Source: Psammoneis japonica
Taxonomy: Eukaryota
DNA length: 64,000 bases
NCBI GenBank assembly: GCA_008632985.1
Contig: QPGO01000219.1
Location: 1 to 64,000 of the forward strand
Reading direction: 5' to 3'
Shown here: positions 22,651 to 52,500 of the stretch, piece by piece
How positions within the stretch are numbered: position 1 is the stretch's first letter
Layout of the letters: each line of letters begins with the position of its first letter
Notes under the pieces: model-generated
The model's input: only the letters and a program-made list of their open reading frames with translations
Databases searched by the model: none
Told to the model about the DNA's origin: nothing
Made by a program: the position numbers and the translations under genes

Positions 22651-24479
22651 TGAAAATCCCACGCCCAAAGTTACAGAACCTGTTGTTGCTGCATCATCAA
22701 TCCAAATGGGCGACTCTTCCGGCGGATTGGCGCACGCTGCCAATGCAGGAAGTGAAACCGGCGGCTTGCCAAACAAGCCCTCCCCCAGAAAACGCAAACG
22801 AACTGCAGGTGTGACAGTTGCCCATGTTTTGCTTGTTGCTTCTGTTGTCTGCTGTCAACATTGATGCGACCCCCTTCTCATCGGTGTCATCTCACTCGTT
22901 GAACACAGACTCTGAAAATGTGTCTTTTAGCAACGATGGAGAGTGTGAATCTGATGCCTTGGGTGACTTTCCTTTGGGATCTTCGCCTGTTGCTGCCACT
23001 GGCATCCTGTCCAATGACTCATTTAGTGCTCCCACCGCTTTGTCTAAAGAATCAAGCCGCAGCTGAATTTCAGGTGAGAAGATGATTCCCTTTTCATCGC
23101 TGCCTGTGTGATTTCATTGTTGTTGACACTGCCTCTTGCCGGCATCATCTCATTTCATTGAATGCAGACACAGAAAATGGATCTTCTGGCGAGGTTGAGA
23201 GGCAGCTTGATGCTTGCGACTCTGTTGAAGAAGAGGAAGAAGCAGCCAAGGCACCCATGCTTCCCACGACAGCCGGTGTCCGTGAAGCTGGTGGGTGGCG
23301 TGGCCATCCCATTCAAGGAGCGTCGGATGGGCCAGGCCTGGCTTCGAATGCAACCGTTGATGCGACTGAGACCAATGGGTCAATGGATCCAACAAGCAAA
23401 TCCACTTCCACTTGCTCGAATCATTCAGTTTCTACCATGTCATCTCGTTTGCTGAACAGAGACAGAGACCACAATGGATCTTCTGGCGAGGGTGACTTGC
23501 AGCTTGCTCTTTGTGACTCTGATGAAGAAGAGGAAGCAGAAGAAACCAATGAAGGTGCACCCACGCATTTCATTGCCGCCGGTGGCTGCGGAGGTGCCAG
23601 TGACTTGGGTGGCTCTGTCATTGGGGGGGTGCCTGATGCCATGACAGAAGATGCCGAAGCAGCTGTGAGTGAAAGCGACGATTTGGACAGCCTAGATTTA
23701 GGGGCTCCACCTGCTGCTGCGACCGGGAACTCTGAGCAAGCTGTAGAAAAGGCTGCCAAACCTTTGGAAAAAGGACATCGTGTCAAGAGATGGAAAACTG
23801 GCACAGGCGCTAGGTTGATGACTCAAGCCGAGGCTTCAAAAACCGGGTTGAGCTTCGATGAAGGGCTTGCACCGGTGGGTCATTGCATTCCGGACACGCT
23901 TCGTCTTGTCTTCCTTAACATGGTTCACGACAAAAACGTGAGAAGGAGATTAAAGATGTCCAAAGCGGCGATTCGAAAGGAATTGGGCCAATGGGTGGCG
24001 TCCGAGAAATGCATCTCTTTTTGTGCGAGAAAAGGATTTGAGGCGCAACTGTTGTGCCGTGAAGAATCTCGAAGTAAAATGGCGTTGCTTCTGAAAGAAG
24101 AAGGCGCATGTCTTGTCATTGTGGATTGCATGGACAGGGTCAAAAACGTGATGGCCAAGCATGCAGTGGCATGTTTTGCGAAGCATGGTGTCCTCGTAGA
24201 CACTGAGCCTTGCACTCACTTCGTCAGGCTTGAAGAGAAGGATCGAGGGACTCTTAAGCGCCGAAACAAGACGTCCATCAAGAAAGCAAATCGCATCTTT
24301 AAGAAATTATTTGACGGCGAAGAAAACAAAATGTTCGAAATGTGCCAGATTTCAAGGAAAGTGTAAGAAACGGGTGGTCAGGTTCGACAATCAGTTGCAT
24401 AGAGCGCAATGAAACCATTTTGTAAACCACTGCATAAAATTGTAAGGAGAGACTTAAGACAGTGGCATTCTAGACGCGG

Positions 24480-27400
24480 TGACAGCCACCAGCCCATGAG
24501 GGCTTTACGACCAATTCAGAACACATCAGTGGCCAATCCTTTGGCAAACTGGCAGACAAGCTGTGCAGCAGAGCTGACAGGCTGAATCTTGATCTCCAAA
24601 GCCTCAACCCCAGTGCAAAACCAGTGGCATGGAATGCCGATGGGCTTGGTTCATGGGGACAATTTAGGCATGCAAGCAAGCTGGGGGCAAGCAGCATTGT
24701 CTTCATACACAACAGATGCTGGCAGGTTGGCAGCATTGATGGGTGAGGAATCGGTGCTGTCGTTGGCCTGCAGGAAGGCCTCGGAGTGGGCAGTTGCCTT
24801 GTTGTGAGCATCCGGTTGTGCAAAGATGTGCGTGTTAATTTCCTTCAAGATCTTGCAAAGGGGGATGAGATCGCACATTGCTTGGGAGAGTGCGACATGC
24901 TCGGCTTCCATCCCAGAAAGTGCTGCCAGGGTCTGCAGCTTGGACACCCAGACGATGGGACATCTGCCACAACAAACAACACAACTGGTGTGTGACTTGA
25001 AAGAAGTGAGGTTTTGTCCATCTTCAATGCCAAAGAGTCCTGCAAAATCAGCAACAACATGACAATCAAGCCAGCGATCTGCAGTGGGTGCTCGGATGAG
25101 ACCCTTGTCAGCAGTGTCCTTCAAGTGCCAAAGAATGTGCTTGATTTCAACAGCATGGGAGGCCTTGGGAGCAAAGGAGAACTGAGCAACTTGGTGGGTG
25201 GCACAGGCAATGTCCGGGTGGCTGTTGGATGCCAGATGTGTCAACATGCTGACCATGGGCCGACAGTTGCCACAAGGTTCATCGAATGATGGGCCTTCAG
25301 AACCACTGCCAGCAGGTGCAGGAAGTGTGGGAGCAGGAGCTCTGTTGCAGTTTTCTGTCTGGGTGGCATGCAGCACTTTCTCAATTGGGCCAGGTTGGGT
25401 TCGCAGAAATCAGCCATCCTTGAGTTTCTGGATCTTCTTGATGCAAAAAAGTTGCCGACTTTGCCTGCATCATGCAGGTTGAATGCATGGCATTGCTCAT
25501 CATTGGAGACACCCAATTTAGCAATCTCAGCTTCAAGTTCTACAGATGACACTCTGGTGAACAAATCATTGTCAACACATGCCACGCACAACATGCCCTT
25601 CTTGAAACAAATGCAAGGGTTGACAGCAGACTGAATCCATCCTTGTTCAATCAATCCATGGTGCAGCTTTTCACAGAAGCACTTGGGAGACTGGCAGAGT
25701 CCATGCAGGCCTTTCAACAATTTTGGTGCCAAGTCAGCACCTGATTTCTGCTGAAAACCCTCAGGAGGCTCCACATGGACTTTCTCCTTGACATCAGCTT
25801 GGAAAAAGGTGGTGGTGCAGTCAATTTGATGAGTGGCCCAACCTTCTTTGAGCACCATTGTGAGGAGAAGCTAAATTGATGACCATTGCATGATGCGCAG
25901 GTCTTAAAACAATCAACACCTTGCACATCTGCAAATCACCATCAACACAACACTGGGCTTTGTGCTTCAAGGGTGCACCATCAGAAAGTCTTTTAAGCCA
26001 GAAAGCCCATGTGCCAGGCAATGCATTCATGTCGTCAGTCCTTGGCACGATTTCCCATGCACAACCGCGGAGCAGCGCATTCATCTCAATCTTCATGGAC
26101 CCATTTGTTGGCCCTGTGACTGCACACAGCTTCATGCAGGGATGGCACATCAGGGTCCTTGTGTTTCTTTGCAGTTGCACAAACCCTTTGCGCAAACCCT
26201 GGGATCATCAATGTTTCAGGTCTGCAAATCAATGCAGGTGTCCAGAGCAGCAAGATGCACCAACTGAGCTGCAGTCCCAAGCAACTCGTCTTTTGAGTTT
26301 GCTGGAGTAAAGAAGACTTTGTCCATGAACCTTTCAGACAGCAACTGACCCTTGTTTGATCAACTTGAACAGCACAGTGGAGGAGCTAACTCTGGAGAAG
26401 TGGAAGGAGGAGATTCCGGTGTTGTTGGCATTGTTGGAGGAGCAGGTTCAGGCAGAGTGACAGCAGGTGGTGGTTTTAACTCTGGTGGCAGTTCTGCAGG
26501 AGCACAGGCAGAGGACTGGAGGGTCATCAGGTGAATTGGGAACTTCAATGTGGACATCAGGTGTGTCTGGTGGAGGCAGTTTGAAAGCAGTCCATGCCTC
26601 TGAGCGTGAGTGGATTGTCTGGGATCTGCAGGGGCCCGGCAAAGTCATTGATGACAGAAGTGGTTTCAGGGTCACAGAATCACAGAAGTCAAACCCGTGA
26701 TGGTGGATGCTTGGAGGTGAGTTCTCACAGGTGTCATTAAAAGATGGGTTGCTTGCTTCATGCACAAGGTCGTCCAACATGCTGTCTGACAGTCTTTCCA
26801 TGTGACTTGATGTGGCGCAATGAAACACAACTGGATTCTTGATCTCTCATGCAGTGTGCAGGCTGAAAACAACTCAAGAGCTGGCAGTTCCAAGTTAAAG
26901 GAGGACAGAGCATTGGAGAGCTTGTGGAAATTGTCAGTGTCTTTGAGGTCAACCGTCTTGACCAAGATTGGAGCTGGTTTGGCCATGGCAGTTTCCCTCT
27001 TGGCCATTAGAGCAGGAGTGAAAGATGCAGAAGCAATGACCACAGGAGGGCTGCCCACAGCATTGTCAACAGGAGTGCACCACATGCCACAATGGACAAG
27101 TTCTTCATTGGCGTCAGAGTCCTTGTCCAACGGTGGAGCCATTGTTTGCTCAGGAGGACCAAATGGGACACCCGCAGAAGGATCATTTGCAGCAGAGAGA
27201 TTTGCTGAAGCAGCGGCACTGGAGGTGGGTGAAAATTTGCTGGTGTGTTCAGCACTTGAATGGCCTTGGCACATGCCCATCTCACCAGTTTCCTTGTTGA
27301 TGCACTTGTCACACAATTTCCAGAGCATGCCTTTGTCATCAGTGAGGGTGGGTCCCTTGTTCACGAAATGCCAGGTGGGCTTGGAAGGTTTTGGTTTTGG

Positions 27401-28800
27401 AGATGGTGAGTCCCTGTCTGTCTTCTTTGTGTTGTTCTTGGACTCATCTGCTTTCACCCTCTGCACTGCCATGTGCTCTTTCTCACATGCAGAACACGCA
27501 TGCTTGGTGCATCCAACCACACCACATCCCTGCAGCAATGCTTGTCCTTGATGGAAGTGTTGCTCGACTTGGGGAGTTTAGCTGTTGGCATGGGTCATGG
27601 CAATCCAGCCAATGTGGCCAACAGGCCCTGAAATTGTGCAGTCAGAGTGGTTTGGCACTTTGGCCAGGTTGCAGAGACAACACTTTTGTGTTCCATCTTC
27701 TTAACATCATCCATCTTCAAGAATGCTTGATGATTAAAGAACTTGGATGAAGTCTTGGATGCTTTGGTTAAAATGGCAGAACCTGTGTCAACCAGCAGCA
27801 CACAGTCCATCTTCACAATCTTGGCCAGAGGAAGAGCTTTGGCCACAAGCTCAGTGCAATCCTTGCCAGGGTGGAACTTGAGCAACAGTGCCTTGAGCTT
27901 CTCCTTGGTGGACTTGACATCAACAAGAGCACTTGCATTGCAAGTGTCCAGAGCCATCACAAACAACACTGACCCTGGAAGATCCTTGAAGTCCTTGATG
28001 TGGTTGAACTTGACTTTGATCTTCTTGCAGGACGTTTCCGTGATTTGAGACTTGACTTGGAGTTGAGAGAGACCGACATTGTCCTTCTTGTAATTGTCAC
28101 AGCCTTTGTCACCTGAAGCAGCATTGCAAGACTTGCACTCCTTCTCAAGAAGGTTGCTGACAGAGATGGCATGAAGGGAGTCTAACAGACAAACAACCTT
28201 GCCAACAGACGTCCTCTTTCAATGGCAGAAAATTTCTTGCCCGTGCAACTGACAAGGTCTTGGATGGTTTTGACAAAGTCTTCCTTGTCCAGTTTGGTGC
28301 TTGGACCATTGGACAGCTTGATTTGACTGTTGAACTTTGAGACAGTTGCTGAAGCAAGTTGTTCACAAAGGGATTGCTTGATGGACTTGACAGCCTTTGG
28401 ACGGCAATGCTGAGAGTGTCATCAAGAAGAGACCCACCAAGGCACATGCCACAAGAGGGATGCAATCCACCATGGATGTGCGTTGGATGCTTGCATGGCT
28501 CCAAAAGCCTTGGCAAACTTCTTGAATGTTTCCAGATCCAATCTGGGAGCAGTGGCATCAGAATCAGACATGATGCTGGATGAGGATTTGACACAAAAGA
28601 TCAGCTGCAAGGACAGGATTGCAGTGCAGAAGATCACCACAGGATGGGATGTCATCACAATGCAGTGCAGAGGAAGACAATCACAATTGACTGGAGATGA
28701 CATTTTGACCTGACGGTTTTGTGTGTCACTCTGGTTGCTGTTGCCAGAAGACTCAATGGACATTTCTTCCAGAAGCAGAGATTGATGACTGGAAGTGTCA
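24480..28800 (-). mobile_element. Decayed Ty1/Copia (CoDi-like) LTR retrotransposon: gag-like region ~26700-28600, RT ~25200-26200, RNase H ~24500-25100
   Basis: LPGTWAFWLKRLSDG..KHKAQCCVDGDLQ, HQIDCTTTFFQAD, LLKGLHGLCQSPK, CVACVDNDL (YVDD), HPDIACATHQVAQF, LDCHVVADFAG, WVSKLQT..ALSGMEAEHVALS, VYEDNAAC. No integrase recognised. Confidence 0.9.
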
Positions 28801-30219
28801 TCCATGAATCACACTTGGCATTTGACTCGTGACTCTGCAGGCTGGAACTTTGTTGTGTTTGAACTTTGTTGTTTCAAGAAACACAGCCACAGTTGTCTTC
28901 AAATGTCCTCAGGCTGTCCTTGTGACATTTTTGTGTTTGACAAACATGTGTTGACTCATCTGAACAAGAGACAAAATGCCACGGGGGCACTCCTGGTGTT
29001 GAGAAAAAGCACATGGGCTCTGTGCAACCACCATGCAGGAGCACACCATGGACAAAATAAAAAATGTTGCTGTGGTTCACACAAACAGTGGTTCAGTGGA
29101 AGGGATGTTTAAAATGCACCCTGAACAGAACTCAGATGCAACACAGAAACTGAGATGAGGGAAGAGGCATCTCCTCCTGGCCTGCTGTGACACACTCAAT
29201 GAGTGCACCCTCACCATCATCTGACAGCAGCAACTTGAGAATTCTCTGAACATGAGCTCCTCTGAGCTGTCACTTTTGGTGACCTCTGTCCTTTGCACAG
29301 CTTTGTTGGGCTTGCCAAGCTCTCCATCTGGCTGTTGCTGATGCCTCCTTTTGCAGCACTCCAGATTTCTTCCATGGGCCCTCTCATGACACTCCCAGCC
29401 AGCCACAAGCTTTTGTCAGCTCCTCACTCTCACCAGCTGCTGGGAACTGTGCCCTGCTCTCTGCCCACTGCTTCACTCACATGCTGCTGCAAGTGGGGCA
29501 AGCTGTCTCTTTGGAAGCTTTTTGCTGCATCACCTGTCAAACCTGGTTCAGAGGATGGACTTGCAAGTTTGAGGGCAGACTCATCATTCCATCACACACC
29601 ACAAAACAGTTTGCAGCTTTGAAACAGAGCAAAAGCAGCTGCTGCTTGACAAAGCCACAGCCTGGAAGCAAGGTGTGGAACAACAAATGGTGTGGCATGT
29701 TGATGAGCCACTGCAGGGAGGAGGGCAGTCCTCATTGCCATCTGCTGGTCCAAAAACCATGTCAGCAACAACCATTTTTAAGTCATGGAAGAGCCTCTGT
29801 TTTAACAGTTGTCAACTTGACACCATTTTGGACATCTCACATTTCTCTTGTGGAAGAACTCAAGGTCAATCAAATCTGCTGTGTTTGGAGCCATGAAAGC
29901 TGGCTTGGTCTCTGTGAACAATTTGTTGGAGTCAAAGTCACACACCATGTTTGCACAGCTTGTTTGTGTGATTTCAAATGTGCATGTTGCTTGTCCTTGC
30001 AAAAGCTCATCAGCCTTGTTTCTCAAAGTTTTGCAGCAGCTCACTTGCTTGCAACTGGCAATGGGCTGCATCTGCTGGGGACAGCTCAGCGTTCATGACC
30101 TTGTCACCCCCAAAGCTGCACTGACTGAAGATCTTGAACAGATTTGATTGATTGTGGACAAAGCTCTCTCTTTGTGGCTGCTTCTGAAGCTTCCCCAATT
30201 TGTCCAAACCATGCCAATC

Positions 30220-31899: not shown

Positions 31900-32200
31900 G
31901 GCTGGGTGTGCACTTCACACGCTGGCAAAAAAGTGCAGAACATTCAGCTTGTGTGTTGGGCTGTCAGCATCAGCTCTGACAAGTTCCTGAGCTCACATGT
32001 CAAGCACTCTCTTTTTGACAATGCCTTCTTCTCCAGACATTTCAGCAGAGTTGGTGTGGCTCAACCTGCTCATTCATGATTGGTTGATTTGTTGTTGGTG
32101 TGGCTGACATCACAACCTTGGGCACTTGTGGGAGCAACACCACTGTGCCTGGTGCACTGTCAGGTGATGACATGGGGAAACAGCAGAGGGTGCCAAAGCT
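31900..32200 (-). mobile_element. Gypsy-type gag 5' fragment (copy 2 of 3)
   Basis: Shares ttcctgagctca(a/c)a, ttttgaca(g/a)tgcctt and catg(a/g)ttgg with the other copies, and gtgcactgtcaggtgatg with copy 3. Confidence 0.65.
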
Positions 32201-36400: not shown

Positions 36401-37030
36401 GGTCTTCTTGAGAGTTTTCATTTTGGGCCAGGGTGGAATTGTTTTGTTCTGGGTTGTCCTCCTCACCCTCACTGTGATTGGATTGGTTCACTCTTGGGTC
36501 AGATGCCAGCAGGAAGCAGGGGTTGTATCCTGGATCACCAGGGAACAGCAGTGAGCTGTGGCCTTGAGTTCCAATGGAGCGGGTGGGCATTGTGGCTCGT
36601 GATGTCATAAATCCCCTCTGCCTCCATGTCTGGGGTTACGTCCTGAACAGTTGGATCAACCATGACGAGTTTGAAACTGCCTGGCTTGCTTTTGAGGAGA
36701 TTTCTGAGTGAGATTGTAGCTGTTGGTGGCAGCTGATGAGGACAGTGATTCCATGTCATCAACTTGGTTGGTTTGAGTTTGTGAAGTCGTCATTCCATCC
36801 CTTCCTGCATCATCAATGGACTGTTTAGATTGTTCAACTCCAGTTGGTGTCCAAGCAACCACCCAATTGTCCATCAGCCCAATCACATGGGAGTCAGTTC
36901 TCGATTTTTTTGGTCCTTGTTTGTTTGAAGACCCTTCAGTTGCCGGAATTTCACAGTCTCTGACCATGGTGCTGCATGCATTTCCCCATCCTGGTCGCAG
37001 TTGGTCCTGTGGCACTGCTGGCATTGATTC
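33450..37030 (-). mobile_element. Decayed APE-type LINE: ORF1-like ~34900-36900 and start of ORF2 endonuclease ~33500-34400
   Basis: ORF1-like pieces LGWLLCS...QEAGFRWRNV and FNFLPKLSNKARGRITSLLPLL; endonuclease N-terminus ALQNPRGLP...EFVGLSEVNVC. Confidence 0.6.
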
Positions 37031-37034
37031 CATG

Positions 37035-37960
37035 TGTCAGATTTGAGTGGCTGTGACTTCCCTGCACACCTCTGCACAAGGGATGCACCACAGCATGTTT
37101 GTCCGCAGTTTCTGCCAGTTCACAATGTCACAGATCTTAGAGAAGTGCAATGGGCTGCATCACATCACTGCAGCCATCATGTCCCTCTCCAGCTTCCATG
37201 CTGCACCCCGTCAAGGCTGTTTGGATTGCACCAAACATGTCTGTGGATTCTTGTGCAAGATGCAACATGGTGCCCTGCAATTGCATGCCAAGGAACATGA
37301 CTGTTTGGACCTTTCTAAGCCTGTGCATGACTGGGCTCAAACCACACATGGTGATGTGGAGCAACTGATTCCCAAAGACATGCGCAGCCCTCTTGGCAAC
37401 TTTGTCGCCATGACCCATTGTGTTGATGCAAGCTTGCTCCATTGCATGCTCACTGGATGCTGTCACAGGCATCATTCTTCATTTCCTCAACAAGTTTCCA
37501 GCTGATTGGTTCCTCAAGAAACAAGCTGCAGTTGAGACTGTGACTCATGGATCTGAGTTGTTTGTTGCTGCTGGGATGTGTGTTGAACAACAGATCATTG
37601 ATCTGTGCATCACATTGCATCACCTTGTTGTCCCAATCCACAACACATGTTGCATGTTTGGGGACAACAAGTCAGTTGTGAACAGTGCCACCATCCCCCA
37701 CTCCAAGTTACACAAGCAACACACCGCCCTCTTGTTCCATCATGTGCATGAGGCAATTGCCTCCGGTTTCCTCAAGTTCGACTTCCTTGAAGGTTCCTGC
37801 AACCCCGCTGACATCCTCAGCAAACACTGGGGTTGCTCCCAGGGTTGGAACCTCCTCCATCCTCTCATGTTTTGGAGCTTTGATCCTGAGGCCTTTAGTC
37901 AATCTAACTTTGAATCTGTTGCTGTGGACTCCTCAAGCAAACTGAGGAGTGACAGGATTT
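37035..37960 (+). mobile_element. Copia (CoDi-like) RT C-terminus and RNase H, followed by a probable PPT/3' LTR start (gaggagTGACAGG, 37944-37956)
   Basis: MSLSSFHAAPRQG, THCVDASLLHCMLTG, WFLKKQAAVETVTHGSE, CMFGDNKSVV, HSKLHKQHTALLFHHVHEAIASG, NPADILSKHWG. Confidence 0.92.
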
Positions 37961-38929
37961 GAACAAGATTTTAGTTTGTTGCACACAAATGTGTGTGCTT
38001 TCAGTTCTGCACATGACACACAATGCAGTTTGCTTTTGAGCCACTTGGCTCATGAGAATTGTGGCAGTGGCACCCACATCATGACACCCCAGTCTTTGGG
38101 CTCCCACAACATTGTCTGCATGAGCATTCATCTGCTGTTTAGATGGCAGCAAGGAGTCATTGTTTTCTTCCACCCAGTCATCTTTGTTTTCTGTGAACTC
38201 ACATTCATGCTCACAAGGACTGCAACAGAGGCAACACTTTCACCCTGAAGAGCAAAGGACTTGATTGAACAGCAAAGAAAAGAGGTGGCATTGAAGACTG
38301 ACTGGTGTGGGCACAGCAAATGAATGATCAATGGACACTGGAGGATGACTCATGCTCACACTGGAAAGGGATCCAACAACAGAGGCAGTGCTTTCACCCT
38401 GAAGAGTGAGGGAAAAAGAAGCAGTGTTGAAGAGAACCCACTGGCATGGACAGAAGCAGTCTGGAGATGTGACATGCAGATTGTCAACAGTTTCTTCTGA
38501 ATCCTGCAGAACTTGAGCTGGAACCTGTGCAAAAAAGTTTCTGAGATGACAGAAATTTGAGAGAAACAACAACCAGTGTGTGAGCCACAAGGCTTCAACA
38601 CACACAATTTTCTGCTGAAAAATGTTGCTTGTCATGCTGCAGTTGGCAAATGTGGACAAAATGGGCTTGTTGGAGCCAACATGACACCATCTGAGAAGGG
38701 CAACATCAGTGCAAGAAGTTGTGCAGAAACCCGCATGGAGACCAGAATGTGCAGCTGACATCAAAAAGTGCAATTGCAAAAAGAACAGCTGCATGTTTGC
38801 CAAATGCACTGCACTCCAGTTCACCCTTCACCTGTGTGCTTTGTGGGGGGAGGCACACAACAACAGCCAGGATGCCATCAGGACAAAATTGTTGTGCTGC
38901 CTGGAGGTGTTGACAATGCCTCCACCAGC

Positions 38930-39170
38930 TGAGTGGTGCATGAGCAGCTGCACTGCCCTGGCAAGACATGTGCAGAAACATCCACTGCCCATCACTTCCA
39001 CTGGCCTGGCATCATGAGTGCTGCAGTGCACTCTGCATGTGTCAAGTGCAAACAATGCCAGGAGATGAAATGCCAGACACGGCATTGCAAGAAGCTGCCA
39101 GAAGTCCAAAAAGCAGCCAAAAGAATCCTGCGGGAGACCTTGTGTGTGGATGTGACATGGGGTCCCACCA
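38930..39170 (+). mobile_element. Gypsy integrase HHCC zinc finger and start of catalytic core
   Basis: HEQLHCPG.TCAET...HFHWPGI......CKQCQ..K...LP...RETLCVDV..GP. Confidence 0.75.
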
Positions 39171-39829
39171 AATTGAGTGATTTGGAAAAGACACTCTGCA
39201 ACAGTGAACAGCAACTGTGACTGCCCAGGCACCAGGAAGATTTGAGTGCCAAGATTGTGGAAGTGTCTGCCAAACATGATGCAGGTGTCACAGAGTCACC
39301 AGAGCAAATGTCATGAAGCAAACCTCCCTGGCCATGTGCAGGCATCCAAATCCACAGGCAAGCACTTCTGCAAAGTGCACACAACAGACACTTGGAAATG
39401 TGGTGTGCTCATTTTCAGTGTGGGACATGGAGTTGGACAAGGGGAAGGGCATCCTTTCAGCCATGGCTTCTGTCATGCATGCTGCATCACATGCCACTGC
39501 ATGGGCAAATCCCAAACAATTGGTCTTTGACATGATGCAGCTCTTCTGTCCATTGCCCTTTGTGCCAAGTGGTGGCACACCTGATGCAGAAAGCTGAAGC
39601 TGATGCACTCAAATGATGAATGCAAAAGCATGAAACAAAAGGAGTGCCAACACACCACAGGGCAGTTGGCACTTGTTGTCAAACAAGGGCAAAAAGACAA
39701 AACACAGAACTGGTTGTCATGCAGGTCCTGCCAGTGTTGTCAGCATGAGTGACAGCAACACTTTGCATCCACAAGATGGTGTGCTGACACAGACATGTGC
39801 AATCTGTGGCAGATTGTGCACTGCCATGC

Positions 39830-40570
39830 CACATCACATTTTTCTTGACGCAACAATGCAGATGAGCACTGATGGTTGATGTGCAGGAGTCATTGGCTCT
39901 CCCAAATTTGCGTGAGAGGCCAATGGATGAACATGATGACAGTGTGGTGGCAGCACTGTCAGCACTTTTCTGCTGCCATGCAACAGCACAATGTTGTCAT
40001 TGACATGACAGCACAGATGAGTGCCAATGGCTGGTGCATCAGAATGGCCCATTTTGCTCAAACTGCAGGAGCTCATCATTTTGTTCAAACTTGCATGAGA
40101 CTGGCACCACTTTCATGATGGTGTTGCAAGCACTTTTCTGCAGCCTTGTTGCAGGGTGTCTTTCTTTGTGACACAGATGAGTGCTGATGGCTGGCACAAG
40201 AAGAGAACAACCACTTTTGCTCAAATTGTGGGAGTCACTGGCTTGTTCAAATTTGAAGGAGAGACCAATGGTGCCAACACAATGACAACATGGTGGTGGC
40301 ATGTCAACACTTTCCCACAGCCGCGCCACAACAGCATGTCTTTCATGATGTGACAAGACTGCAGATGAGCATTGATGGCTGGTGTGAAGGAGAGCAGCCT
40401 GTTTTGCTCAAACCACAGGAGTTCATCACATTGTTGTTCAAGCTTGCATGAGACAGCCAACAGCATTTTTTTGCAATGATGATGTGGCGGAGTTGTCAGC
40501 ACTTTCTTGCAGCCTTGCCACAGTGTGTTTTTCTTGACAAGATGGCACAAATGATTGTTGACGAACATGT
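39830..40570. repeat. Degenerate tandem array, about 5 units of 155-188 bp
   Basis: Anchor cagatgag..(t)gatgg(c)tg at 39859, 40014, 40174, 40362 and a variant at 40548; shared ttttgctcaaa, ttgttcaa and cagcacttt motifs. Confidence 0.75.
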
Positions 40571-40749
40571 CATGTTCTGGCACACATCAGCAATTTGGAG
40601 ATGCGCTGGGCAGCAACAATGTTCCTGTTGTTGGCACACTGCCAAGGTGCACATGAAATGGTGGTTTGTGAGCTTGGCTGCTGCACCACCCCCACATGAG
40701 TGCCTCAGAACTGCCAAGCAAGAGTTGATCTTCAGATGGTCCTGATGCA

Positions 40750-43700
40750 TGATTTGGTCATTTTGGAAGACTGGCGGAGATTGTGCTTTGAATCCATGGG
40801 GCACCCTGCCTAAAAACAACTTCCATGTTGGCAACATCTGCTTTTTCAATTGCCACAAAACAAGTCTCAGCATGTGGTCCAAACACTCTGATGGCAGCAC
40901 ATGCACACTTGTGGGACATTGTCACATGCAGAGACAATGCTGCAGTTGCCATGAAGTGGCGGGAACTTCAAATGGTGGCCTCTGCTGTTGCACCATTGTA
41001 GAGTGCAGCATCTTCACTCCTCATGTCTCTTCATGATGTCTGCATGGTGCCTCACAGAATTGTGCATGGTGCATGCATGCATGGAGCCCCACATGGGGTT
41101 GCACTTGCACACCAAAATGAGCTCTTCAAGCTTTCCATCGCCATGACACCTTTTCCTGGAAAATGTTGGGTGAGTCATTGCATGAGCCCATTTGCAGGAC
41201 CTGTGTGTCTTGCACCACCTTCCTCATGGGCAGACAAGCATGCACATCTTTTGGCTGCCACCGTCAACAAGTCAAATGTGGCAGCATCCAGCATTGAGGA
41301 GATCTGATGATGTCGCCCACCACACAAAGCCTTCAAGCTCATGCAGCATGTCCTGGATGTGAGGAGTTGGGTGGGGCAATCTTTTGACCCCACTGTTGAG
41401 CTCCCAGAAATCACCAAGAAACCATGCCAGCACAAAATCTTGCTTTGGCAAGGAAAATGATGGAGCTGCACACTGCAGACACAGTTGGTTGTGCATCCAG
41501 TGATGAGAATTTCACAAATGCGCTCCACTTCCTTTCTCTTGGCATTGCCTCACATCCCCTTGGGGCTTTGCGAGGATGTCTGTTGTCAGCAACATGGCTC
41601 AGCATGATCCTCTTTAAGCTGGGTGTGGTGAGGACCCCCTTTCCATTCACCTGACATGCCATCAAACAAGGACTCACACTTTTTCAACAAACCAAGCAGC
41701 TTCACTTTCCAGTTGCTGTCAAGTCCTGTTGCTCCCTGCATTGTGTCCTCAAGGCATGCTGGCACATGCTTGGCATCTGAGATCTTTAAAATTCCATTGC
41801 TTTCTGAAAACAGTGGCTCTGGATCTTGAAAACAGATGGAGGTTTCTGCAGTGGCTTTTGTGCATTTAAATGGTGTCTTGTTGTCAACCTTTGGCCACTC
41901 CAGCATGTCTCATCCAACAACCATGTCAGGTTTGCCCAATGATCAGCTGTGTGTGTGGTGAACTTCACACACAAGTTCTGCAGTTGTGGACAATTCTGGC
42001 AACTGGAAATTGGTGGTGTGAGAACTGTGTGCCATCTTAACTCTTTGTTTGCCAGAATGGATTAGATTGGAATTTTTTGCATGGTGTGCAGACGCACATG
42101 TTTTTCATGACGTGCACCCACCACACACCACAAGGGTGGTGATGCCAACAGCCACAACAGCGTTGTTGCATTTGCCATTGTTGCAGAGCCACCATGGCAG
42201 GTGATGTCCTCCTCCATTTTCCAGTGGCATTTTTTTAATTTCAATGTTGTGGTTGCTGTCATTGCCAATTTTTCCTCTGCAACAATTTGACTGCATTCAT
42301 GTGGTCACTGTTGTTGTTGCTGTTTGAGACATTCCAACTGTGAGTTGTGCTTGGAATTGTGGAAGGGGGGCAAAAGAGATGCAAGCAAGCTTTTGTTTCA
42401 TGGTTAAAGCAAGACATGTTGTTGTCTCTTGCATTGTCATTCAGTGCTCAACACATTTAATGTGATGCCTTGGCATCACACACTGATGCATGTTTTCTGG
42501 CTGCACTCATTTGTTGCATCAGAACAAATGGAGAGCACTGTTGGTGGCATGACAGTGAACTGTCACAGCAATGCTTTTTGTTCAATTCAGGTGCAAGTGC
42601 TGCAGGAATGGCAGGATGCATGCCAGTTTAAAGAAGTCACTCTTCCTTTAAAAAGATCATTTGGAAACTGTTGTCGCACATGATGCTGTTGGATTTCAAG
42701 TGCAGATGGGGGGCAAAAGCAACAGATGCAGGCAAGCTTTTGTCATTTTTCAAAGTGAGTTTATGTTGTCTTTTTTTTGTTCAACAGATTCCATGCATCA
42801 CTTTCCAACACACATTTTTTACACCTCGGCACTGCACACTGATGCATGTGGTCAAATGTCTTCATTGCCTTCTTGTTGTGCACAAGGTCTTCTTCTTGCA
42901 CAGGCCTCTTCCTCCCTTTCTTTGGTTGACGGGTCTTTCCATGTGTGAGACCATGTTTGCTGAAAGAGCACCACTGCAAGGCACACACTCAATCAAGCCA
43001 CAGCACAGAGTGGTGCATGTTGTGTGACAGATGATGCACGTGCACATTGCCAATTTTAAACTGGCAGTTGCTGCACTTTGTTGCACCCAACATGTGTTTT
43101 AGATGTGTTGACGGCAACAATCTTAAATTGCATTGGCAGTCTTCTGTTCAGCTTTTCTTTTCTCATTGGCTGAGGGAGCCTTGTCTGCAGTGCCCATGGA
43201 CAGACATCTCCTTCCCCATGACTTCCTTGTCAAGATGCCTCTCAGAGGATCAGGGTGCAGGACATGTTCTTTGTGCATTGCATGTGAGCTTGTGCAAATG
43301 AACAAGAGACAAAAAGGCATTCAGTGGACAAACAGCAAAGGGCTGGTCTTCTGCAAATGGGTGCAACTAAGATCAGTGGAAGCTCACCTCATTTTCTTTT
43401 GTTGGACAGTGCAAGAAATGACGGGTGAAACAGCTGCAATTTCTGATGGCACTGGAGGTCAAGCAGTGGCTGGGGGAGCCACGCAGGACTCCAAATCAAA
43501 GGTGAGCATAAAGACATGCTTGCCATTGTCCATGTCCATCATGCCCATGCCACAAACAACCGTGATTTTGCACTGAAAAGTGGAAAACAGCAGCATGAAA
43601 AGCAAGGGCTGGCTGAGGGAATGTGAAATGCAAAAAAGGACAATCCAGCGTAACAGAACAACAGCATTGTGATGCACACTTGCCCATTGTTTGACAATCC

Positions 43701-45450: not shown

Positions 45451-46799
45451 GAAAGTTGCGCCATGTTGTGGAGTTCATGAGACCAGCTTGTTTCTGAAAA
45501 AAATTGTGTGAATGGGGAGTTGTGCAAATTCCCTGTTGAATTGCTCTTTGGATCACATGTGGCCAACTGTGCCAAAGTTTCTCCAACTCCATTTGCACAC
45601 ATGATCATGAATGCATGCACCGCATGCCACTCTTGTGCAACATCATGATTGCATTGATGGCCTGTCAATGCACACACACCACATGCACAGAGGATGCTCA
45701 CATGCCAACACTGCTGCAGCTCTTGACAGTGATGGCAGCATGCTTTCTTCATGTCCCAGCTGTCTTCTTTCCAGCTGCAATGCCTTGACAGATTGATCTG
45801 GTTTCAGATCATTGTGTGCTGGATGGACCCCCATCTTTGGAGCTTCTCACACTGGCCAGCCAAAAAAAGCCATGCCACATTTTCCAGTTTGGCAACCCTG
45901 CCATCTCACTTGTGCACAATTTGGTGTGCATGAAGTTGGTGACCTGTGGCAAGGCATCACCACAATCAAGCATCTCCCAGTGTTCATCTCCATCTGATTT
46001 TTTGCTGTGATTGTGAACCCCATTTCTGGAAACAGCCTGTGAAGATGCGAGCACCACCATGGGTGGGAGGAATCCAGCTCCACTGGGAGCCAGGGTGGCA
46101 TTTGGTCCTTTTGTTTGCACTGGAGAGATTGGCACTGTCACCTTTCTGTCTGCAACAGCTCTTTCTTCTTTCAAAAATTGCAGAGCATCTTGCCATAAAA
46201 AATGGCAGTGCTCAACTCCGCATTTGCCACCATGACAAGTGACAACACACCTGGCAGCATTGCAACAGCCCCCCACTTGCACCATTTTGGACCACATGAG
46301 AAAGTCAATGAAGTCAATGTCATGTGCACCTCTGATTGGCAAGAAAGACATTGAAAGCCTCTTCCATTGAGTGCCCACCCAAGATGCTGGTGTTGATCTT
46401 GCCAGCAACATGACTCAGAGCACTTGAAAAAGAGCATTTGCAGAGATTGCCAAATCTTCCTTGGCATGTAATTTTCAGGCCTGGACAGGCTCTTGTCTCC
46501 ATTGCCCACAGTTTGCAGCCATCAAAGCTGTTGATTGTGGGCTGTTCAAAGCAGCAAAATTGCCTTGGTCAGCAACAGAGAGTCTTTTTGAAAAACAATC
46601 TCTGGGTGGGTTCTTTGTGCCATTGTTGACAGCTGGCAGATGCCAACAATGGTGCTTGTGTCATGGGAGCTTTGCAGCAGGGGAGACATGCAACCCAAAA
46701 GTGCTCACTCTGCAAAAGCTGCACAAACTCAGGCTCGCTCCACTGAGTGTGTGTCTTGACATGACTGTGTGTCTCAACTGTGGGTGACTCGTGTCATGA

Positions 46800-47700
46800 G
46801 CATTGTAGACTCATCTGGCTCCTGAGGTCATGTCTGGTGAGCAAAAGCTTCTGCTCATGGAAGACAACATTTGTGCATGTGTGTGAAGAGAGAGCACATT
46901 TCACAGGATGAGTCTTTTCATGACAACACATGTGCCAGCCCAGGTGAGCAGCTCTCACAGCTGTCAACAAGAACAACAAAGTTTGCAGCTGCTCAATGCC
47001 CCTTTCCCTGCTTTTGTGGCACATGAAAAAGGAGCAGGGGGTGAGCTGGGTTGTGAACAGGAGATGAAGTGCCTTGGGTTGCTCAGTCATCTCCAAGGTG
47101 AGCGAGTCAAGGATCAAGGAGAACCTTTGTCAAATGCAGTCAGCCGCACACCAGAGGGTGAAATGCAGAGAAATGGATGAGCCAGCTCACAAAAAGAGCA
47201 AAACAGCCAAGAACCCAGAGAGATGCTGGAGCTTGCGGCTCATTTGTTTCTTCACATGTGAAAGTGTCTGAGCCTTGGAAAGCCTTGACATCAGCTCTCA
47301 GAGCTGAGATGGTTGTGTTGGTGGTGGCGTTCCAACAGGAGGCAGTCTGACATTTTGACACTGGTGCACCATGTCCCAAAGGCAGCCACAATTTGTTTGT
47401 GTGTTGACTCAATGTTGCTCTTGCCTCTGTTGCAGTTGAGCAGATGCAATCCATGCTCATTCTTCATTGGCTCTCCTGCACTGTTCATGCACAAGGTGCA
47501 GAATGCAACACCTGGAGGGTCCAACAAGTGCCCAGCAAGGATGGCTTTCAACATGCCATTCTTGCTTTTTTCCATGCTCTCTGGTTGAATGGCATGGTGG
47601 CTGTCCAGTTTGACTGTCAATCTTTGAGCCCAGCAGCACATGCACTGCTTTTTCCTGGGCTTCTTGTCTTTTGATCCAACCTTTCTTCCAGGTGGCATCA
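46800..47700 (-). mobile_element. Relic of a transposase-like protein (DPPG...C.RG.N..E..H family)
   Basis: LLDPPGVAFC...NEHGLHLLNCNRGKSNIESTHKQIVAAFGTW...ERHHQHNH, and MPPGRKVGSKDKKPRKK. Family recalled from motif memory, not searched. Confidence 0.5.
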
Positions 47701-49686
47701 TTGCCAATTGTTGATGAAAGGTCATTGCGATTGGACTGTTGCAGGAAAACTCATGCAATGACATCAACAAGAAGACAATGGTGATTGACACCAGATGACG
47801 CAATGTTCGCTGCCTCTTGCTTGAAGAATGTTGGTGCATCTTTTGCACTGCACAAACCTTCACCAGCAAAGTGAGCATGACATTTCAGTTTTGTGACTTC
47901 TGATTGGTTCTTGCCATTTTTCTTTTGCTCGTTGCACAATTTTTGCACAACTGTGTTGGTGCAAAAGCTGCACGCAAGACTGCAAGCTCTCAAGCAAAAG
48001 TTCCAGTGACATGCACTGTGAGCCCTTTCTTTTAGTCTGTTCCCTCTCTCTAGAGAGTGCATGCCTTCACAGGGCATTTTGTTCACATGCAGCAGCTGCT
48101 GCTGGGCGGGCTGTGCTGGCGGGAGCTGCTGACTCCTCCTCACTTGGCTGTTGCTTTTTGCTGGGGGGGGGGGGGGCTCTGTGCCGCTGCTCTGGCTGCT
48201 GCTGCCAGCCAGAGTGCCACTGCTGCGGCTCGTCAATCGGCCATGACAGAAGCAATGAGCAGAGCGGGTGTGTGATGTGCTGATGCAGCCCCAGTCATCA
48301 TCCTTTTGAATGATGAGCAAACTGCTGTGACTGCACATTGAAAAATCATGTCTGGGATGCCCATGACCAAGCCAGAAGAGAAGGCACATGGCAAGTTGGT
48401 GGCTGGCAAAGCTCTTGTGACTCCAGAAAGAGGTTGTGCTCTCACAGCACACCAAAGCTTGCTTCCAGCAGCTCAGCACCTGAACATTGTCATGGGGACA
48501 CTGAAAGTGATGGGGGTGATGACCATTTTTTTGACACCCTCAGAAAAATGGTGGCTGGCATGGACAGACAAATGGTCAATGGGAAAGGCATGACTGACCA
48601 AGAAAACAATGCCTGTGGAAAGCTGGTCTCTGGAGTTGTGCTTGCATCTGATGAAGAAGATTGCGCTGCTGCCGCTGACAGGATCCAGCACTTGTTGATG
48701 AATCTCCAAGCATGTGTGAAAGCACCGGAGCTTGCTGTGGAGATGTCTCTCTGCTGCTGTGCACTGCATCTGTCAAATGAGACCATCACAAGCATGTGCT
48801 CCATGACCTCTTTGCCAAGCTGGGCAATCATCTTTGCAGCTTTGGTGTTTGGTGCAGAGCTCCCAGCACAATGCTTTGCTGAGGTGCCAAGGTCACATGG
48901 GCAAGAGGAGCAGCAGCATCAGCAGCAAAAAGCAGCTCTGCTGTGTGTTGGAGCACCAAGCAGCCAGAGCAACAACAACAAAAAGAAAAGATGAAAAGAG
49001 CACAAGTTGACAGGCGTGCATCATCTGAGGTGGCCAGAAATGATCTCCAGTGTGTGCCAGCACCAGACAGGCAGCACCAGCAGAAGCAGGGCAAGAAAGC
49101 AAAGGCTTGCTGTGGTGAGGATAGCATGGACAAAGTCAAGAAGCCACACAGAGAGAAGCAAGCCAACTTGGTGCAGCCTTGGCACCAGGTGATGGCTCGA
49201 GAGTGCACATCATCATGCACGGCCACTGCTTGTGAGGTGCCAAGAGCAGCAGCTGTGCTGGCCAGCTCCAAGCTCCTGCAAGAGCTTGGCTGGCCTCTCA
49301 TGTTGCCAACTCAGAACACTTTGTGGCGGAGTTGAAAAGCAAGGTGCTTTGACCATTGTGTGCAGCATGGCAGCAGCTGGAAGGAAGTGGGCAAGACAAG
49401 CTTGCTCTCTCACACTGCAAAAGAAGAAACAACAACAGAGAGACAGGAAACAAGCAACAGCTGACAATGGCAATTCTTTCTGCTTGGAATGCCATCACAT
49501 TTTCTGTGTTCACTGTCCTCGTTGCTTGCATTGGACTGGTGACATTTTTGCCACAAGATCTGACAAAGGGGCAATGTGTGATGACACAAAAAGCACAAAA
49601 ATCACCCCCTCCCCCCAATTAAGGTGTTTGCAGAACAAAGGGGTGAAGGTGCGACAATTTGATTTTTCAGGATTTTTTCCACTGTG

Positions 49687-49712
49687 CTAGAAACGCGTGG
49701 CGTGCCACGTGC
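49687..49712 (-). mobile_element. Possible Helitron-type 3' terminus (GC hairpin followed by CTAG)
   Basis: Minus strand gcaCGTGGC-ac-GCCACGcgttt-CTAG. Confidence 0.3.
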
Positions 49713-50216
49713 CTCGTTGCCAAAAATCGGAGACGTGACAGTGGTGCATTGTTGCAACCACAGTGATGACAGCAACACATGTGTCCCAGAGTCTTTTGTC
49801 AACACAGACATTTAGTTTGTTGAGTTTAAGAATGCACTCAGTCATGAAAGTCCCCACGAGCAACCTCTGTTTGAAAGCAAAGCAACGACCTGTTAATCAC
49901 ATCCTGTCCTCTGACCCATGCACTGCACGGTACAAAATTTGTGGCATGCAGCACACAACGCAATTCAATTGCCAAATTGATGACCTTCCACATCAGCGCT
50001 GTCATTGTGTGGTGTCCACATCCACATTGTTTGTTTGATGACCTGCCCTGGCCCGCCCAGGGACACAAACAGTCTGTCCAGTCAGACACCCTGGCCTGGG
50101 TGAACAAATGATGATGGGACACTGCGCACTGTAGCCAGGGTCGACTTCAGTGCTCAGTGTTCTGTGGACAAGCACACCAAGGCATGTCAATGAGTGTCAA
50201 GTGTTTCACGAATGAT

Positions 50217-50230
50217 GGGGAGTGACAAGT
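50217..50230 (+). mobile_element. Possible copia PPT/LTR junction (ggggagTGACAAG)
   Basis: Same motif as follows the copia RNase H at 37944. Confidence 0.35.
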
Positions 50231-51599
50231 CGCACAAAAATCAGCACTCAAAAGGTTCTGAGCTGCAAAAAAAAAGATGCACTGGCACACTGCTGGGATT
50301 GTGTTGCTGTTGTTGTTGTTGTTGTTGTTGTGGTCAGGGTCCCCCATCAGTTTCTTTGCATTGCAGCACAAACTGGAGCACACATGTGGTCATGATCTGA
50401 ACCTGGTGCAAATGATGGAAGAGCTTCAGCCAATCCTCTTGTCTGCAGCATTGTTTCTAGCAGCATCCCTCTGTTTTGTTGGGTTGGAAAGGTTGGGCAC
50501 CAATCGTGACAAGTGCTGGACCAATCATGCCATGCCGAATTGTAAAAGAAGTGTGAGAAACCTTGTTGTTGTCAAAGTGACTCAGCAAAGAAAGTGTGTC
50601 TGCCCTCTGATCCAGGTGCTTTCTTCAAAGGCCTGCTCAAATTCAGGTGCACTGATGATTGTGTGAATGTGCAGAAGCTGTGTCACAAAATCACAAAGAC
50701 TTTGTGAGGATTTAGAGAGGCAGCTCTCCCCACCACCTGCTGACCACTTAAAAATGGAAGCATTGGAACAGATGAAATGTGAAATGACAAGGGTGAATGG
50801 TTTGTGGCTGCAGGACAAACAGCATTTGTCAGCTGCAAGCAGACCTCCTCACAGTGCTGCTCATGCACTTCATTGCACAACATGTGTGTGCATCGTCCAA
50901 AAATTTGATGACACACATGACAGTGTGTCACTTCCAACCGGAAACCCTTGCTGCCACTCAAGCAAAATCCAACATTGATTCTTGTTGTGTGCTGCAGCAC
51001 TTTCATCTCCTTTTCACTCCCAACAACAGTCACTCACACCCGCTGATGGAAGAAGTCGAAAGCATTTGTGAATGCAAAGCCCAAAGACAGCATGGCCAGT
51101 GGCAACCCTCGTGCAAGGCAGTCTTTGTGGCATGCTTTGGATCCGCAAAATGTCTTGTCCAAGGAGGAGCTTCACACCTCCAAGCAAGTGTGCATCATGA
51201 TTGCATTGTTTTCCGGGAAGCAGATCGGCAGTCATGCTTTCCACCTCAATGCAGGGAGTTGCTGGCACCAAAATTCACTGATGTCATGTTCAATGAGAAG
51301 TGCAACACAGCTGGCCTGTTTCTCCATGTCACCTTCATCAGAATGTTTTGTGGAAACAGCGCACTCACCATTGAGACTGAGACGTCCAAGTTCTTTGCTT
51401 CATTTTTGAGGCATCATCCGTTGCTGCCACACTGCTGGACATGCTTGATCTGCTGTGCTTGGGGAAGTGCCAGGATGCCAGCACCTTCTCTGTGGTGGCG
51501 GTGGTTGGTGGGCCGCACCCACCACTCCCATTGTGCGTCAAGTTATCAATGCTTTCACCTTTGAAAAGTTGGCACCTGCTGCATTGGAGACAAAGAAGT

Positions 51600-52500
51600 T
51601 GATGGGAATCTCGTGCATGAAGAGTTCTTTGTCAACAGACCTTCTCTTGGCGAGCTGCTTCCTCTCGACAGAGAGCAACAAAATGTGCAATCCTTCAAAT
51701 TGGTGATTTTCAACATCAGCAGCTTTGTCTTGGCTCTGACTGATGTTGTGTTTGTGATGGGCTTCTTGCTGATCACATCTTCCCTGCAGGATGACTGGAG
51801 CAACGAGAGTTGCTCAACTGGCAAGCTTTCTCAGTCAGAAACGTTGTCCAAGGTTGCCCTCCGAGGTGGAGCAGAGTTCAACAATGCCAAAAGCCATCAG
51901 CAATGAGCTCTGGCATGGCTTCAAGACAATGCGAATCTAACTCGCTGCTCTGAAGCAAAGAAAGTCCAGTGCAGAACCGCACCTGGATTTCAGCGGACAA
52001 GTGGCTGTCGGACGCGGAAGAATGCACCGGTGCATGCAGCACGTTGTCTGCGATCTATCGGCGATCGGATCTATCGGCAGGTCTGTCGTTGCACTCGAGC
52101 TCCCAAACAATCGTCTCGCATGTCCTCTCCACTGGCGAGGTGCATCTGCACAATGACTTTGCTTGTAAATGGCGGAGGCGACGGGCATTGTTTCCTCCAC
52201 TGGTTGACGAACCGGCGTCGCTTGAATGCTGGCTCGAACGACTTCATCTACGAAGGCATCCCGCTCCAGTTTGGCAAGCTAACGTATTTGCTTATTTTGT
52301 CCAGGACATTTCGAACTTGGGCTACTCGTGGAAGAGGAAAGGTATTTCAAGGATTGCGTGTTCTATGTATACATAAGAGCTGAGAATCGGCGGGAACTAC
52401 GTCAACGGTCCATTCCGATGGAGATTGGCAAAATCAAGTCTCTCGAGTACCTGCATGTTGAAAACGCGGGCATTACTGGCTCCTTCTAAGAACATTACGA
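51600..52500 (+). pseudogene. Leucine-rich-repeat receptor-like protein pseudogene
   Basis: Hydrophobic segment, then ALAWLQDNANLT..SEAKKVQ, KWLSDAEEC, GIPLQFGKLTYL and PMEIGKIKSLEYLHVENAGITG, in changing frames with stops. Confidence 0.7.

Follow-up and report, generated by a model that had tools for sequence, protein, structure and literature searches.

The window analysed here comprises positions 1 to 64,000 of contig QPGO01000219.1 of the diatom Psammoneis japonica, read on the forward strand, and all coordinates are window coordinates. Long, intron-poor open reading frames (ORFs) encoding a GH20 hexosaminidase, a saccharopine-dehydrogenase-like protein and a SMUBP-2/IGHMBP2-type helicase border a TA-poor block of about 34 kb (~18000 to ~51950), which is accompanied by a separate island at 10000-11730. 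The subject of this report is the loss of the dinucleotide TA from this block, which in its larger part has lost CG as well and contains remains of Ty1/Copia retrotransposons. The features are listed in Table 1. For the flanking helicase, the best protein matches were 51-59% identical, and the named ones all came from raphid pennate diatoms (Amphora, Cylindrotheca, Nitzschia, Mayamaea, Epithemia, and Seminavis).

Table 1. Coordinates of the TA-poor block, its parts and its edges within the window.
Feature	Coordinates	Strand	Remarks
Main island	24470..51940		TA and CG both depleted; TG and CA doubled, both strands; multi-copy in sequencing run
TA-poor, CG-keeping segment	18000..24400		TA observed/expected 0.14, CG observed/expected 0.84; ~1.54-kb tandem repeat, N gap, long Tyr-free ORFs
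Second, separate island	10000..11730		2 TA, 8 CG; purine-rich on the + strand
Longest TA-free run of the window	38141..40810		2671 bp between TAs
Left block edge	17980..18137		Normal TA density up to 17980; next TA at 18137
Right block edge	51938..52056		Last block TA at 51938; TA and CG density normal again within ~100 bp, from 52056
Near-normal TA patch	24255..24506		8 TA per 150 bp (flank mean 6.0); junction of CG-keeping segment and Copia fragment
Tandem copy a	19727..21129	+	92.6% identical to copy b over 1403 columns
Tandem copy b	21268..22649	+	Against copy a: 14 CA/TG doubles, 10 TA vs TG/CA sites, 16 CG vs TG/CA sites
Copia (Ty1-type) RT/RNase H fragment, decayed	24489..26313	-	RVT_2 and tblastn; conserved Tyr kept 0/9, Arg 3/14
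Second Copia-like polyprotein 3' fragment	37152..37953	+	tblastn; conserved Tyr kept 0/4, Arg 1/11

Extent of TA and CG Loss

Dinucleotide observed/expected (o/e) ratios were computed for the window only, in 1-kb bins and by segment. The main island (24470-51940) held 104 TA (o/e 0.06) and 211 CG (o/e 0.13), with TG at o/e 1.83 and CA at 1.92, while the flanks gave 0.57-0.60 for TA, 0.98-1.05 for CG, and 1.11-1.15 for TG/CA. TA o/e was ~0.5-0.9 and CG o/e ~0.8-1.2 in the 1-kb bins of the flanks; the bins of 25001-52000 contained 0-9 TA and 0-22 CG each, with a mean TG/CA o/e of 1.57-2.18, and TG was about equal to CA in every 1-kb bin. Among the 16 dinucleotides, only TA and CG were depleted in the island, AA, AT and the other A/T ones being unchanged. 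Besides TA, CG, TG and CA, the only other departure was that of GC (o/e 1.25 versus ~1.0 in the flanks), a rise that fits frequent TAC>TGC and GTA>GCA changes. Relative to flank usage, the island's deficit of TA and CG (2369) was matched by its excess of TG and CA (2530).

An initial annotation, made from the letters alone, had claimed that TA and CG are nearly absent over ~27 kb while the flanking genes use TA normally, and both statements are borne out by these counts. The three stretches in which it saw no TA (~24838-25518, ~28185-29056, and ~38145-40810) are exact by TA positions, the gaps running from 24836 to 25519, from 28183 to 29058 and from 38140 to 40811. Its limits of 24470-51940 do enclose depleted DNA but were drawn too narrowly, the block starting at ~18000 and the island at 10000-11730 lying apart from it. 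The longest TA-free run in the flanks was 205 bp, compared with 2671 bp in the block, and the block edges are sharp, within about 100-150 bp. None of the TAs in the near-normal patch at 24255-24506 stands in an RTAY context (R, purine; Y, pyrimidine), and this patch hints at targeting by sequence units rather than of a continuous domain.

The second island (10000-11730) is 67% purine on the plus strand, and Lys, Glu, Gly, and Arg abound in every plus-strand frame. Its ORFs had no Pfam match, and it had no similarity to the main island.

The reliability of the sequence was assessed against sequencing runs. Run X1 contained 77% of the sampled words of 45000-54999, and one X1 contig of 954 nt at a depth of 33.7 matched 47225-48176 with 0 differences, 364 contigs being at least 99% alike. 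Runs X2 and X3 contained next to none of the sampled words, with 11 and 1 of 30 bins covered, respectively. Among the runs listed for 45000-54999 there was none of RNA, from which nothing follows about expression. The flanking genes at 52500-55700 were covered twice by contigs of runs X1 and X2, one set nearly identical and the other ~10% diverged with replaced stretches of 50-115 nt, and this doubled cover suggests two divergent haplotypes or subgenomes.

Identity and Copy Number of the Affected DNA

In the Pfam search, the Copia reverse transcriptase domain RVT_2 was found at 25244-25870(-) with an E value of 2.5e-13. The ORF adjoining it matched 156 proteins at E<=0.001, the best 120 of which all carried PF07727, many being full-length polyproteins, and tblastn with Copia homologues identified 24489-26313(-) as the RT-RNase H end, that is, the C-terminal part of the polyprotein. 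A profile-free HMMER search with ORF 37414-37959 returned 2869 relatives, which mapped a second Copia-like fragment to 37152-37953(+). Judged by RVT_2, the PF07727 homologues and the polyprotein layout, the target DNA includes Ty1/Copia retrotransposon remains. RVT_2 was the only Pfam domain found at 24-52.5 kb among 135 ORFs of at least 90 aa and six stop-read-through frames of 24001-52504; the region carrying the peptide GCCHI had no Pfam match, and its PDB matches were at chance level only (best E 0.22). Of the transposable element (TE) classes that the initial annotation had named, Copia therefore stands on RVT_2 and tblastn, and the Gypsy, LINE and DNA transposon labels found no Pfam match, although decay may hide domains.

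For the CG-keeping part of the block, none of the ORFs of the 18-24 kb segment matched Pfam. The C-terminal part of ORF 23086-24363, the sole ORF of 18-24.4 kb searched for homologues, had none at E<=0.01 among 559 candidates. The plus-strand ORFs of 18000-24400, which are 376-426 aa long, contain zero Tyr and are rich in Cys and His where Tyr likely stood.

When X1 contigs were compared with 36000-55999, 2384 matched at >=80% identity, 825 of them at <90%, and from these many divergent contigs the block is taken to be repeated in the genome. The summed X1 contig depth reached ~35,000 over 37334-38667, compared with a few hundred elsewhere, and the peak coincides with the second Copia fragment; on contig depth, the 3' end of this element and the DNA following it belong to a very abundant family.

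Direction of the Change at Conserved Codons

To establish the polarity of the changes, columns in which >=70% of >=8 aligned homologues agree were selected, and the consensus residue was compared with the window codon. The homologue sets numbered 120 and 150 for the two Copia fragments, and the flanking helicase was handled alike as a control. In the first Copia fragment, 137 of 206 columns were identical; Tyr was kept at none of nine (six were CAY His and three TGY Cys) and Arg at three of 14 (the rest being Cys, His, Trp, Gln, stop or Asp), and retention was 5/5 for Trp, 15/17 for Pro, 7/8 for Gln, 8/10 for Lys, and 8/10 for Phe. The second fragment, with 91 of 126 columns identical, kept Tyr at none of four (three His, one Phe) and Arg at one of 11. 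In the control helicase, 411 of 444 columns were identical, and Tyr was kept at 8/8 and Arg at 31/34. For both fragments pooled, Tyr was kept at 0/13 (9 CAY His, 3 TGY Cys, 1 Phe) versus 8/8 in the helicase (Fisher p=4.9e-6), and Arg at 4/25 versus 31/34 (Fisher p=3.6e-9), with 19 of the 25 Arg columns now reading Cys, His, Gln, Trp or stop, the decay products of CGN codons. The remaining conserved residues, neither Tyr nor Arg, were kept at 224 of 294 columns (76%), compared with 93% in the helicase control.

Since TAY codons are the only Tyr codons, working copies of these elements need TA, so the loss of TA is mutational. The change of TAY to TGY or CAY proposed in the initial annotation was found at 12 of the 13 conserved Tyr columns, and the five peptides with altered Tyr from which it had been deduced all lie where implied: CVDND at 25579(-), DCHVVADFAG at 25067(-), GCCHI at 41289(-), THGSE at 37543(+), and HWGC at 37825(+). 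No strand bias was read from the ratio of Tyr>His to Tyr>Cys (9 vs 3), which is too weak to interpret, or from the excess of TG over CA at 18-24.4 kb (121 vs 38 above expectation), which is too weak and too dependent on the baseline.

If intact copies were equally poor in TA, the loss could be a native property of the elements. Intact Copia relatives at 17 metagenome loci (L001-L017), 39-51% identical, had a TA o/e of 0.37-0.69 and a CG o/e of 0.47-1.0, compared with a TA o/e of 0.08-0.09 and a CG o/e of 0.14-0.24 for the two window fragments. In these environmental relatives CG is moderately reduced, with o/e <0.7 in 12 of 17, and this, combined with normal TA, would fit active diatom Copia elements that are CpG-methylated but not hypermutated at TpA.

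Change in Place After Tandem Duplication

The two copies of the ~1.54-kb tandem repeat differ by 88 substitutions, of which 73 are transitions. Among them are 14 adjacent CA/TG doubles in 1382 columns, whereas placing the same substitutions at random in 2000 trials gave 0.58 on average and never more than 5. A CA/TG double implies a palindromic ancestor (TA or CG) that was altered on opposite strands in the two copies. Both copies still have CG at 69 sites, one of the two has lost it at 16, and this ~10% loss per copy predicts less than one double from CG, so the 14 doubles descend from TA. TA was retained in both copies at 8 sites and in one copy at 10. With an equal count of unseen concordant doubles added, we infer that the tandem unit held ~45 TAs at duplication (o/e ~0.5, normal here), and the loss of TA since then would be ~60-70% per copy. 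Judged by these copies, TA was altered in DNA, in place, on either strand, after duplication; A->G and T->C on the opposite strand are indistinguishable in duplex sequence.

Altogether, 38 events fell at TA sites, and elsewhere there were 34 differences, 19 of them transitions, over ~1290 columns. As rough derived estimates, the bases of TA would have changed by transition ~60-85x faster than other sites, and CpG ~7x faster. The other genomic copies represented among the X1 contigs also differ mainly by transitions, and among the variant sites listed in the TE part (18), three were CA/TG doubles, five were CG versus TG/CA, and two were TA versus TG.

A run of 561 N (19063-19623) lies inside the tandem repeat, so that the number of its units is probably too low in the assembly. 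In addition, a 30-bp unit is duplicated in tandem without a mismatch (2.0 copies, 100% match) at 34644-34702 inside the old island, and this duplication must therefore be younger than the surrounding hypermutation.

Flanking-Base Preference

Context counts were taken as strand-folded NTAN, with survivors in the island set against the counts of the flanks. Of the 104 surviving island TAs, 35 stand in TTAA and 30 in CTAA/TTAG, and ATAT, GTAC and ATAC/GTAT together account for 5; most surviving TAs lie at junctions of T-runs and A-runs. Relative to the flanks, TA survival was 0.78 for TTAA, 0.53 for CTAA/TTAG, 0.05-0.18 for the mixed contexts, and 0-0.03 for RTAY. In the tandem copies, the contexts (T,A), (C,A) and (T,G) contained none of the 38 strand-resolved events; here much of the symmetry between the -2 and +1 counts is forced, because both strands of double sites are counted. 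Surviving CGs had no comparable or strong context rule (survival 0.07-0.23). From the survivors and the tandem copies, the TA-erasing process prefers RTAY and spares YTAR. A symmetric rule of this kind suits an enzyme that reads the duplex, and a preference exerted on one strand only, for purine at -2 and pyrimidine at +1, would fit equally well.

Proposed Mechanism and Alternatives

A comparable mutation process has been reported in mutation-accumulation lines of the chlorarachniophyte Bigelowiella natans (Mettrop et al., bioRxiv 10.64898/2026.01.13.699255). According to the text of this preprint, 231 of 302 nuclear mutations fell in integrated NCLDV (186 kb) and virophage (25 kb) regions, and 230 of these 231 were A>G or T>C, all on TpA per the authors, at a rate of ~6e-7 per site per generation, ~1000x background, in 11 of 15 lines. 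The same source describes 124 genomic clusters of windows poor in TpA and rich in CpA and TpG, an enrichment of reverse-transcriptase and DDE domains among TpA-poor coding sequences, and an ADAT2-like DNA adenine deaminase, proposed there and unproven (bioRxiv 10.64898/2026.01.13.699255).

For the block described here, it is probable that two context-specific transition processes struck repeated, presumably silenced DNA in place, and that the process acting on TA is enzymatic. The first arm would convert TpA to TpG or CpA (A:T to G:C, on either strand) with a preference for RTAY, and the second, running at ~7x background, would be the familiar decay of methylated CpG into TpG/CpA. The first arm would run ~10x faster than the second, with both acting on the whole block, so that young repeats (18-24.4 kb) have suffered TA loss only and old ones (24.5-52 and 10-11.7 kb) both losses. 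Because the segment at 18-24.4 kb is TA-poor yet CG-rich, the loss of TA is independent of prior CG loss and the arms are separable; two clocks running in one block, with younger and older parts, is the simplest reading of this difference. From the window itself, the direction of the change, its occurrence in situ after duplication and on both strands, the sharp edges and the context bias can be regarded as established, and the first arm, which is presumably enzymatic with silenced or foreign DNA as its target, seems to be the very process measured de novo in B. natans. The idea of the initial annotation that repeats undergo a second process, distinct from CpG deamination, in which TA becomes TG/CA is supported by the loss of all 13 conserved Tyr, the discordant CA/TG sites of the tandem copies, the TA-normal relatives and the TA-poor, CG-rich segment.

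With regard to the chemistry, if the process is taken as real, the leading candidate is that adenine in DNA is deaminated to hypoxanthine, although we would rate it at somewhat below an even chance; it fits the direction of the change and the requirement for a 5'-T. Mispairing of oxidised thymine with G (5hmU/5fU, made by a TET/JBP-type enzyme) would give the same duplex outcome and is about half as probable. Literature searches for 5-hydroxymethyluracil in diatom DNA returned dinoflagellate papers only.

Several points weigh against this two-process reading. Its basis is one 64-kb window and historical substitutions, and run X1, which may be the assembly's own source and whose platform is not on record, is not an independent confirmation. 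The context bias was taken from survivors near saturation rather than from a spectrum of polarised substitutions. The intact relatives, 17 in number, share just 39-51% identity and were retrieved with peptide patterns biased towards intact copies. In the tandem copies, 10 sites with TA lost from one copy compare with ~22 expected, so that independent uniform hits fit only roughly, and the TA-retaining patch at 24255-24506 is not explained by a simple domain-wide model. Copia apart, Pfam and PDB gave no name to the island content, and the repeat status comes from contigs over 36000-55999 only.

Among the alternatives, the least improbable dispenses with a dedicated editor and takes the loss of TA as a by-product of heterochromatin, for example of a bias in replication or repair by which, in methylated DNA that replicates late, T:G or A:C mispairs at the flexible TpA steps are resolved to G:C. 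CpG decay in the same block and the equal effect on the two strands speak for it, and the symmetric RTAY/YTAR bias could stem from duplex structure instead of enzyme specificity; against this, the excess is ~60-85-fold and nearly exclusive to TpA, the edges are sharp within ~100 bp, and a TA-rich patch lies inside the block. We know of no repair bias of such TpA specificity. In addition, the signature in B. natans was seen in just 11 of 15 lines, which its authors take as regulated activity, and overall a repair bias is unlikely. More improbable still is that an ADAT- or ADAR-like enzyme changed A to I at UpA in the double-stranded RNA of the TEs and that these edits were fixed via reverse transcription and reinsertion, each copy inheriting its pattern, even though the identifiable elements are retrotransposons, pattern changes fall at element junctions, and known RNA editors prefer U 5' of the edited A (Discussion of the preprint, bioRxiv 10.64898/2026.01.13.699255). 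Under ADAR-type hyperediting fixed by retrotransposition, copies duplicated as DNA should share their edits, yet the tandem copies acquired different CA/TG outcomes at the same sites after duplication, and this candidate was rejected. RNA editing is further opposed by the near-saturation through all 34 kb, including stretches without recognisable coding sequence, by AA being undepleted, unlike the looser preferences of ADAR, and by the B. natans mutations, which in the text of the preprint arose de novo in single-copy integrated DNA.

That the pattern is an artefact, whether of faulty assembly or base calling or of a modified base (e.g., inosine or modified A at TpA) read as G, is very improbable. 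The platform is not on record, the sole run containing the stretch may be the source sample, and there is an N gap in the block; however, mixtures of TG and CA reads would break contigs such as the 954-nt contig (depth 33.7, 0 differences) and the 364 at least 99% alike, and strand-mixed miscalls would also give TA and CG calls, which are absent here. The loss of CG is not explicable as 5mC read-through on short-read chemistry, and the frames are decayed beyond Tyr and Arg, the other conserved residues being kept at 76% versus 93% in the control. Scarcely any weight is left for a native composition, in which the elements were always poor in TA and CG or TA was selected against: TA is under-represented in the flanks too (o/e ~0.59), but Tyr needs TAY and none of the 13 conserved Tyr is left, intact relatives have a TA o/e of 0.37-0.69, and the tandem unit would have carried ~45 TAs (o/e ~0.5) at duplication. 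This reading is regarded as refuted by the Tyr loss, the TA-normal relatives and the TA content of the tandem ancestor.

Going beyond the two-process reading, diatoms and chlorarachniophytes might share an old, dedicated DNA-editing defence that targets duplex sites of the RTAY type within silenced DNA, foreign or repeated, and changes A:T to G:C, a natural TpA-specific adenine (or thymine) editor which together with CpG decay would give a two-arm erasure of both palindromic pyrimidine-purine steps. This proposal is tentative and, in our estimate, clearly less likely than its negation. Within it, the editor might be an ADAT2-like deaminase that accepts both A and C in DNA; the two arms could then be the work of one enzyme. 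If such a defence exists, it would remove all Tyr codons and the TAA/TAG stops from selfish genes while leaving the G+C content unchanged.

Consequences for Annotation and Beyond

The stop codons reflect the loss of TA. In the island, TAA and TAG together number 168 versus 1412 TGA, compared with 951 versus 1016 in the flanks, and the six frames of 18000-24400 contain 68 TAA and TAG versus 257 TGA. As TAA/TAG and Tyr codons are lost, long false ORFs arise and Pfam-based TE annotation is evaded (one domain in 28 kb); hypermutated blocks will therefore give false gene models. If the process is the same as in Bigelowiella, TpA hypermutation would not be peculiar to one alga: it would be found in two SAR lineages far removed from each other, the ecologically dominant diatoms among them, and its targets would comprise transposons besides integrated viruses. 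The near-saturated block supplies a flanking-base rule, a rate relative to CpG decay (~10x) and the separability of the arms, which the main text of the preprint on the 231 de novo mutations does not. A natural DNA editor making A:T>G:C at TpA would also be of interest to base-editing work.

Comparison With Known Systems

The pattern shares with the repeat-induced point mutation (RIP) of ascomycete fungi its dense transitions limited to repeated DNA, its sharp edges and its destruction of TE frames, and it differs in that the C-to-T changes of RIP, most of them at CpA, create TpA, which is destroyed here. TpA/ApT was 0.067 and (CpA+TpG)/(ApC+GpT) 2.03 in the island, compared with 0.63-0.70 and 1.12-1.22 in the flanks, while the usual RIP-positive cut-offs are >0.89 and <1.03, respectively. 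With both indices inverted in the island, fungal RIP was rejected; the initial annotation was right in calling the pattern the opposite of RIP, and its label "RIP-like" is apt as an analogy only. RIP-like CpG mutation has also been described in basidiomycetes (PMC3318451).

Decay of methylated CpG explains the arm that turns CG into TG/CA (CG o/e 0.13, Arg kept at 4/25, 16 one-copy CG losses), but it cannot produce the loss of TA, and at 18-24.4 kb TA is poor while CG is kept. Very-short-patch repair is the textbook route by which TA-containing words become CA/TG, through correction of T:G to C:G, and is known from the scarcity of CTAG in E. coli; it is bacterial, acts genome-wide in CCWGG-like contexts, and is far weaker than the block-confined loss seen here. 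In diatoms, CpG methylation of TEs depends on DNMT5a, and DNMT4 is related to RID, its function being given as not known in the text of that report (PMC9998398).

Like ADAR/ADAT RNA editing, also known from ADAR-edited retroelements of animals, the process changes A to G with U/T favoured 5' of the edited A (bioRxiv 10.64898/2026.01.13.699255). The difference is that its substrate is chromosomal DNA in place and that its TpA requirement is near-absolute. At +1 it prefers T or C over G over A, whereas ADAR favours G.

The closest system is that of B. natans, and the window displays every feature of this type of TpA hypermutation that can be tested in sequence. In both, going by the text of the preprint, A:T>G:C changes are confined to TpA and yield TpG or CpA depending on the strand; they are limited to discrete blocks of foreign or selfish DNA, and neighbouring genes are spared (here with edges at 17980/18137 and 51938/52056); the rate is far above background (historically ~60-85x other transitions here, ~1000x de novo there); chromosomal DNA is changed in place (here at 14 CA/TG discordant tandem sites); and clusters poor in TpA and rich in CpA and TpG are the long-term result. 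The host is a rhizarian chlorarachniophyte there and a diatom, a stramenopile, here, and the targets are viral insertions there and LTR-retrotransposon remains plus a tandem repeat here. TA o/e is 0.45 for the NCLDV region there and near saturation at 0.06 here, the evidence consists of de novo mutations in lines there and is historical only here, and the main text there reports no co-located CpG decay and describes no flanking-base bias such as RTAY/YTAR.

The view of the initial annotation that no pathway of this kind has been characterised is thus partly overtaken by this one 2026 preprint, although the enzyme proposed there is unproven. Full-text literature searches for TpA depletion in diatom transposons returned nothing. 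The phenomenon is accordingly not categorically new, TpA hypermutation having been documented in another alga by that preprint; what the window adds, as read from its sequence, is the diatom lineage, transposons and a tandem repeat as targets, the near-saturation, the co-located CpG decay, and the flanking-base rule.

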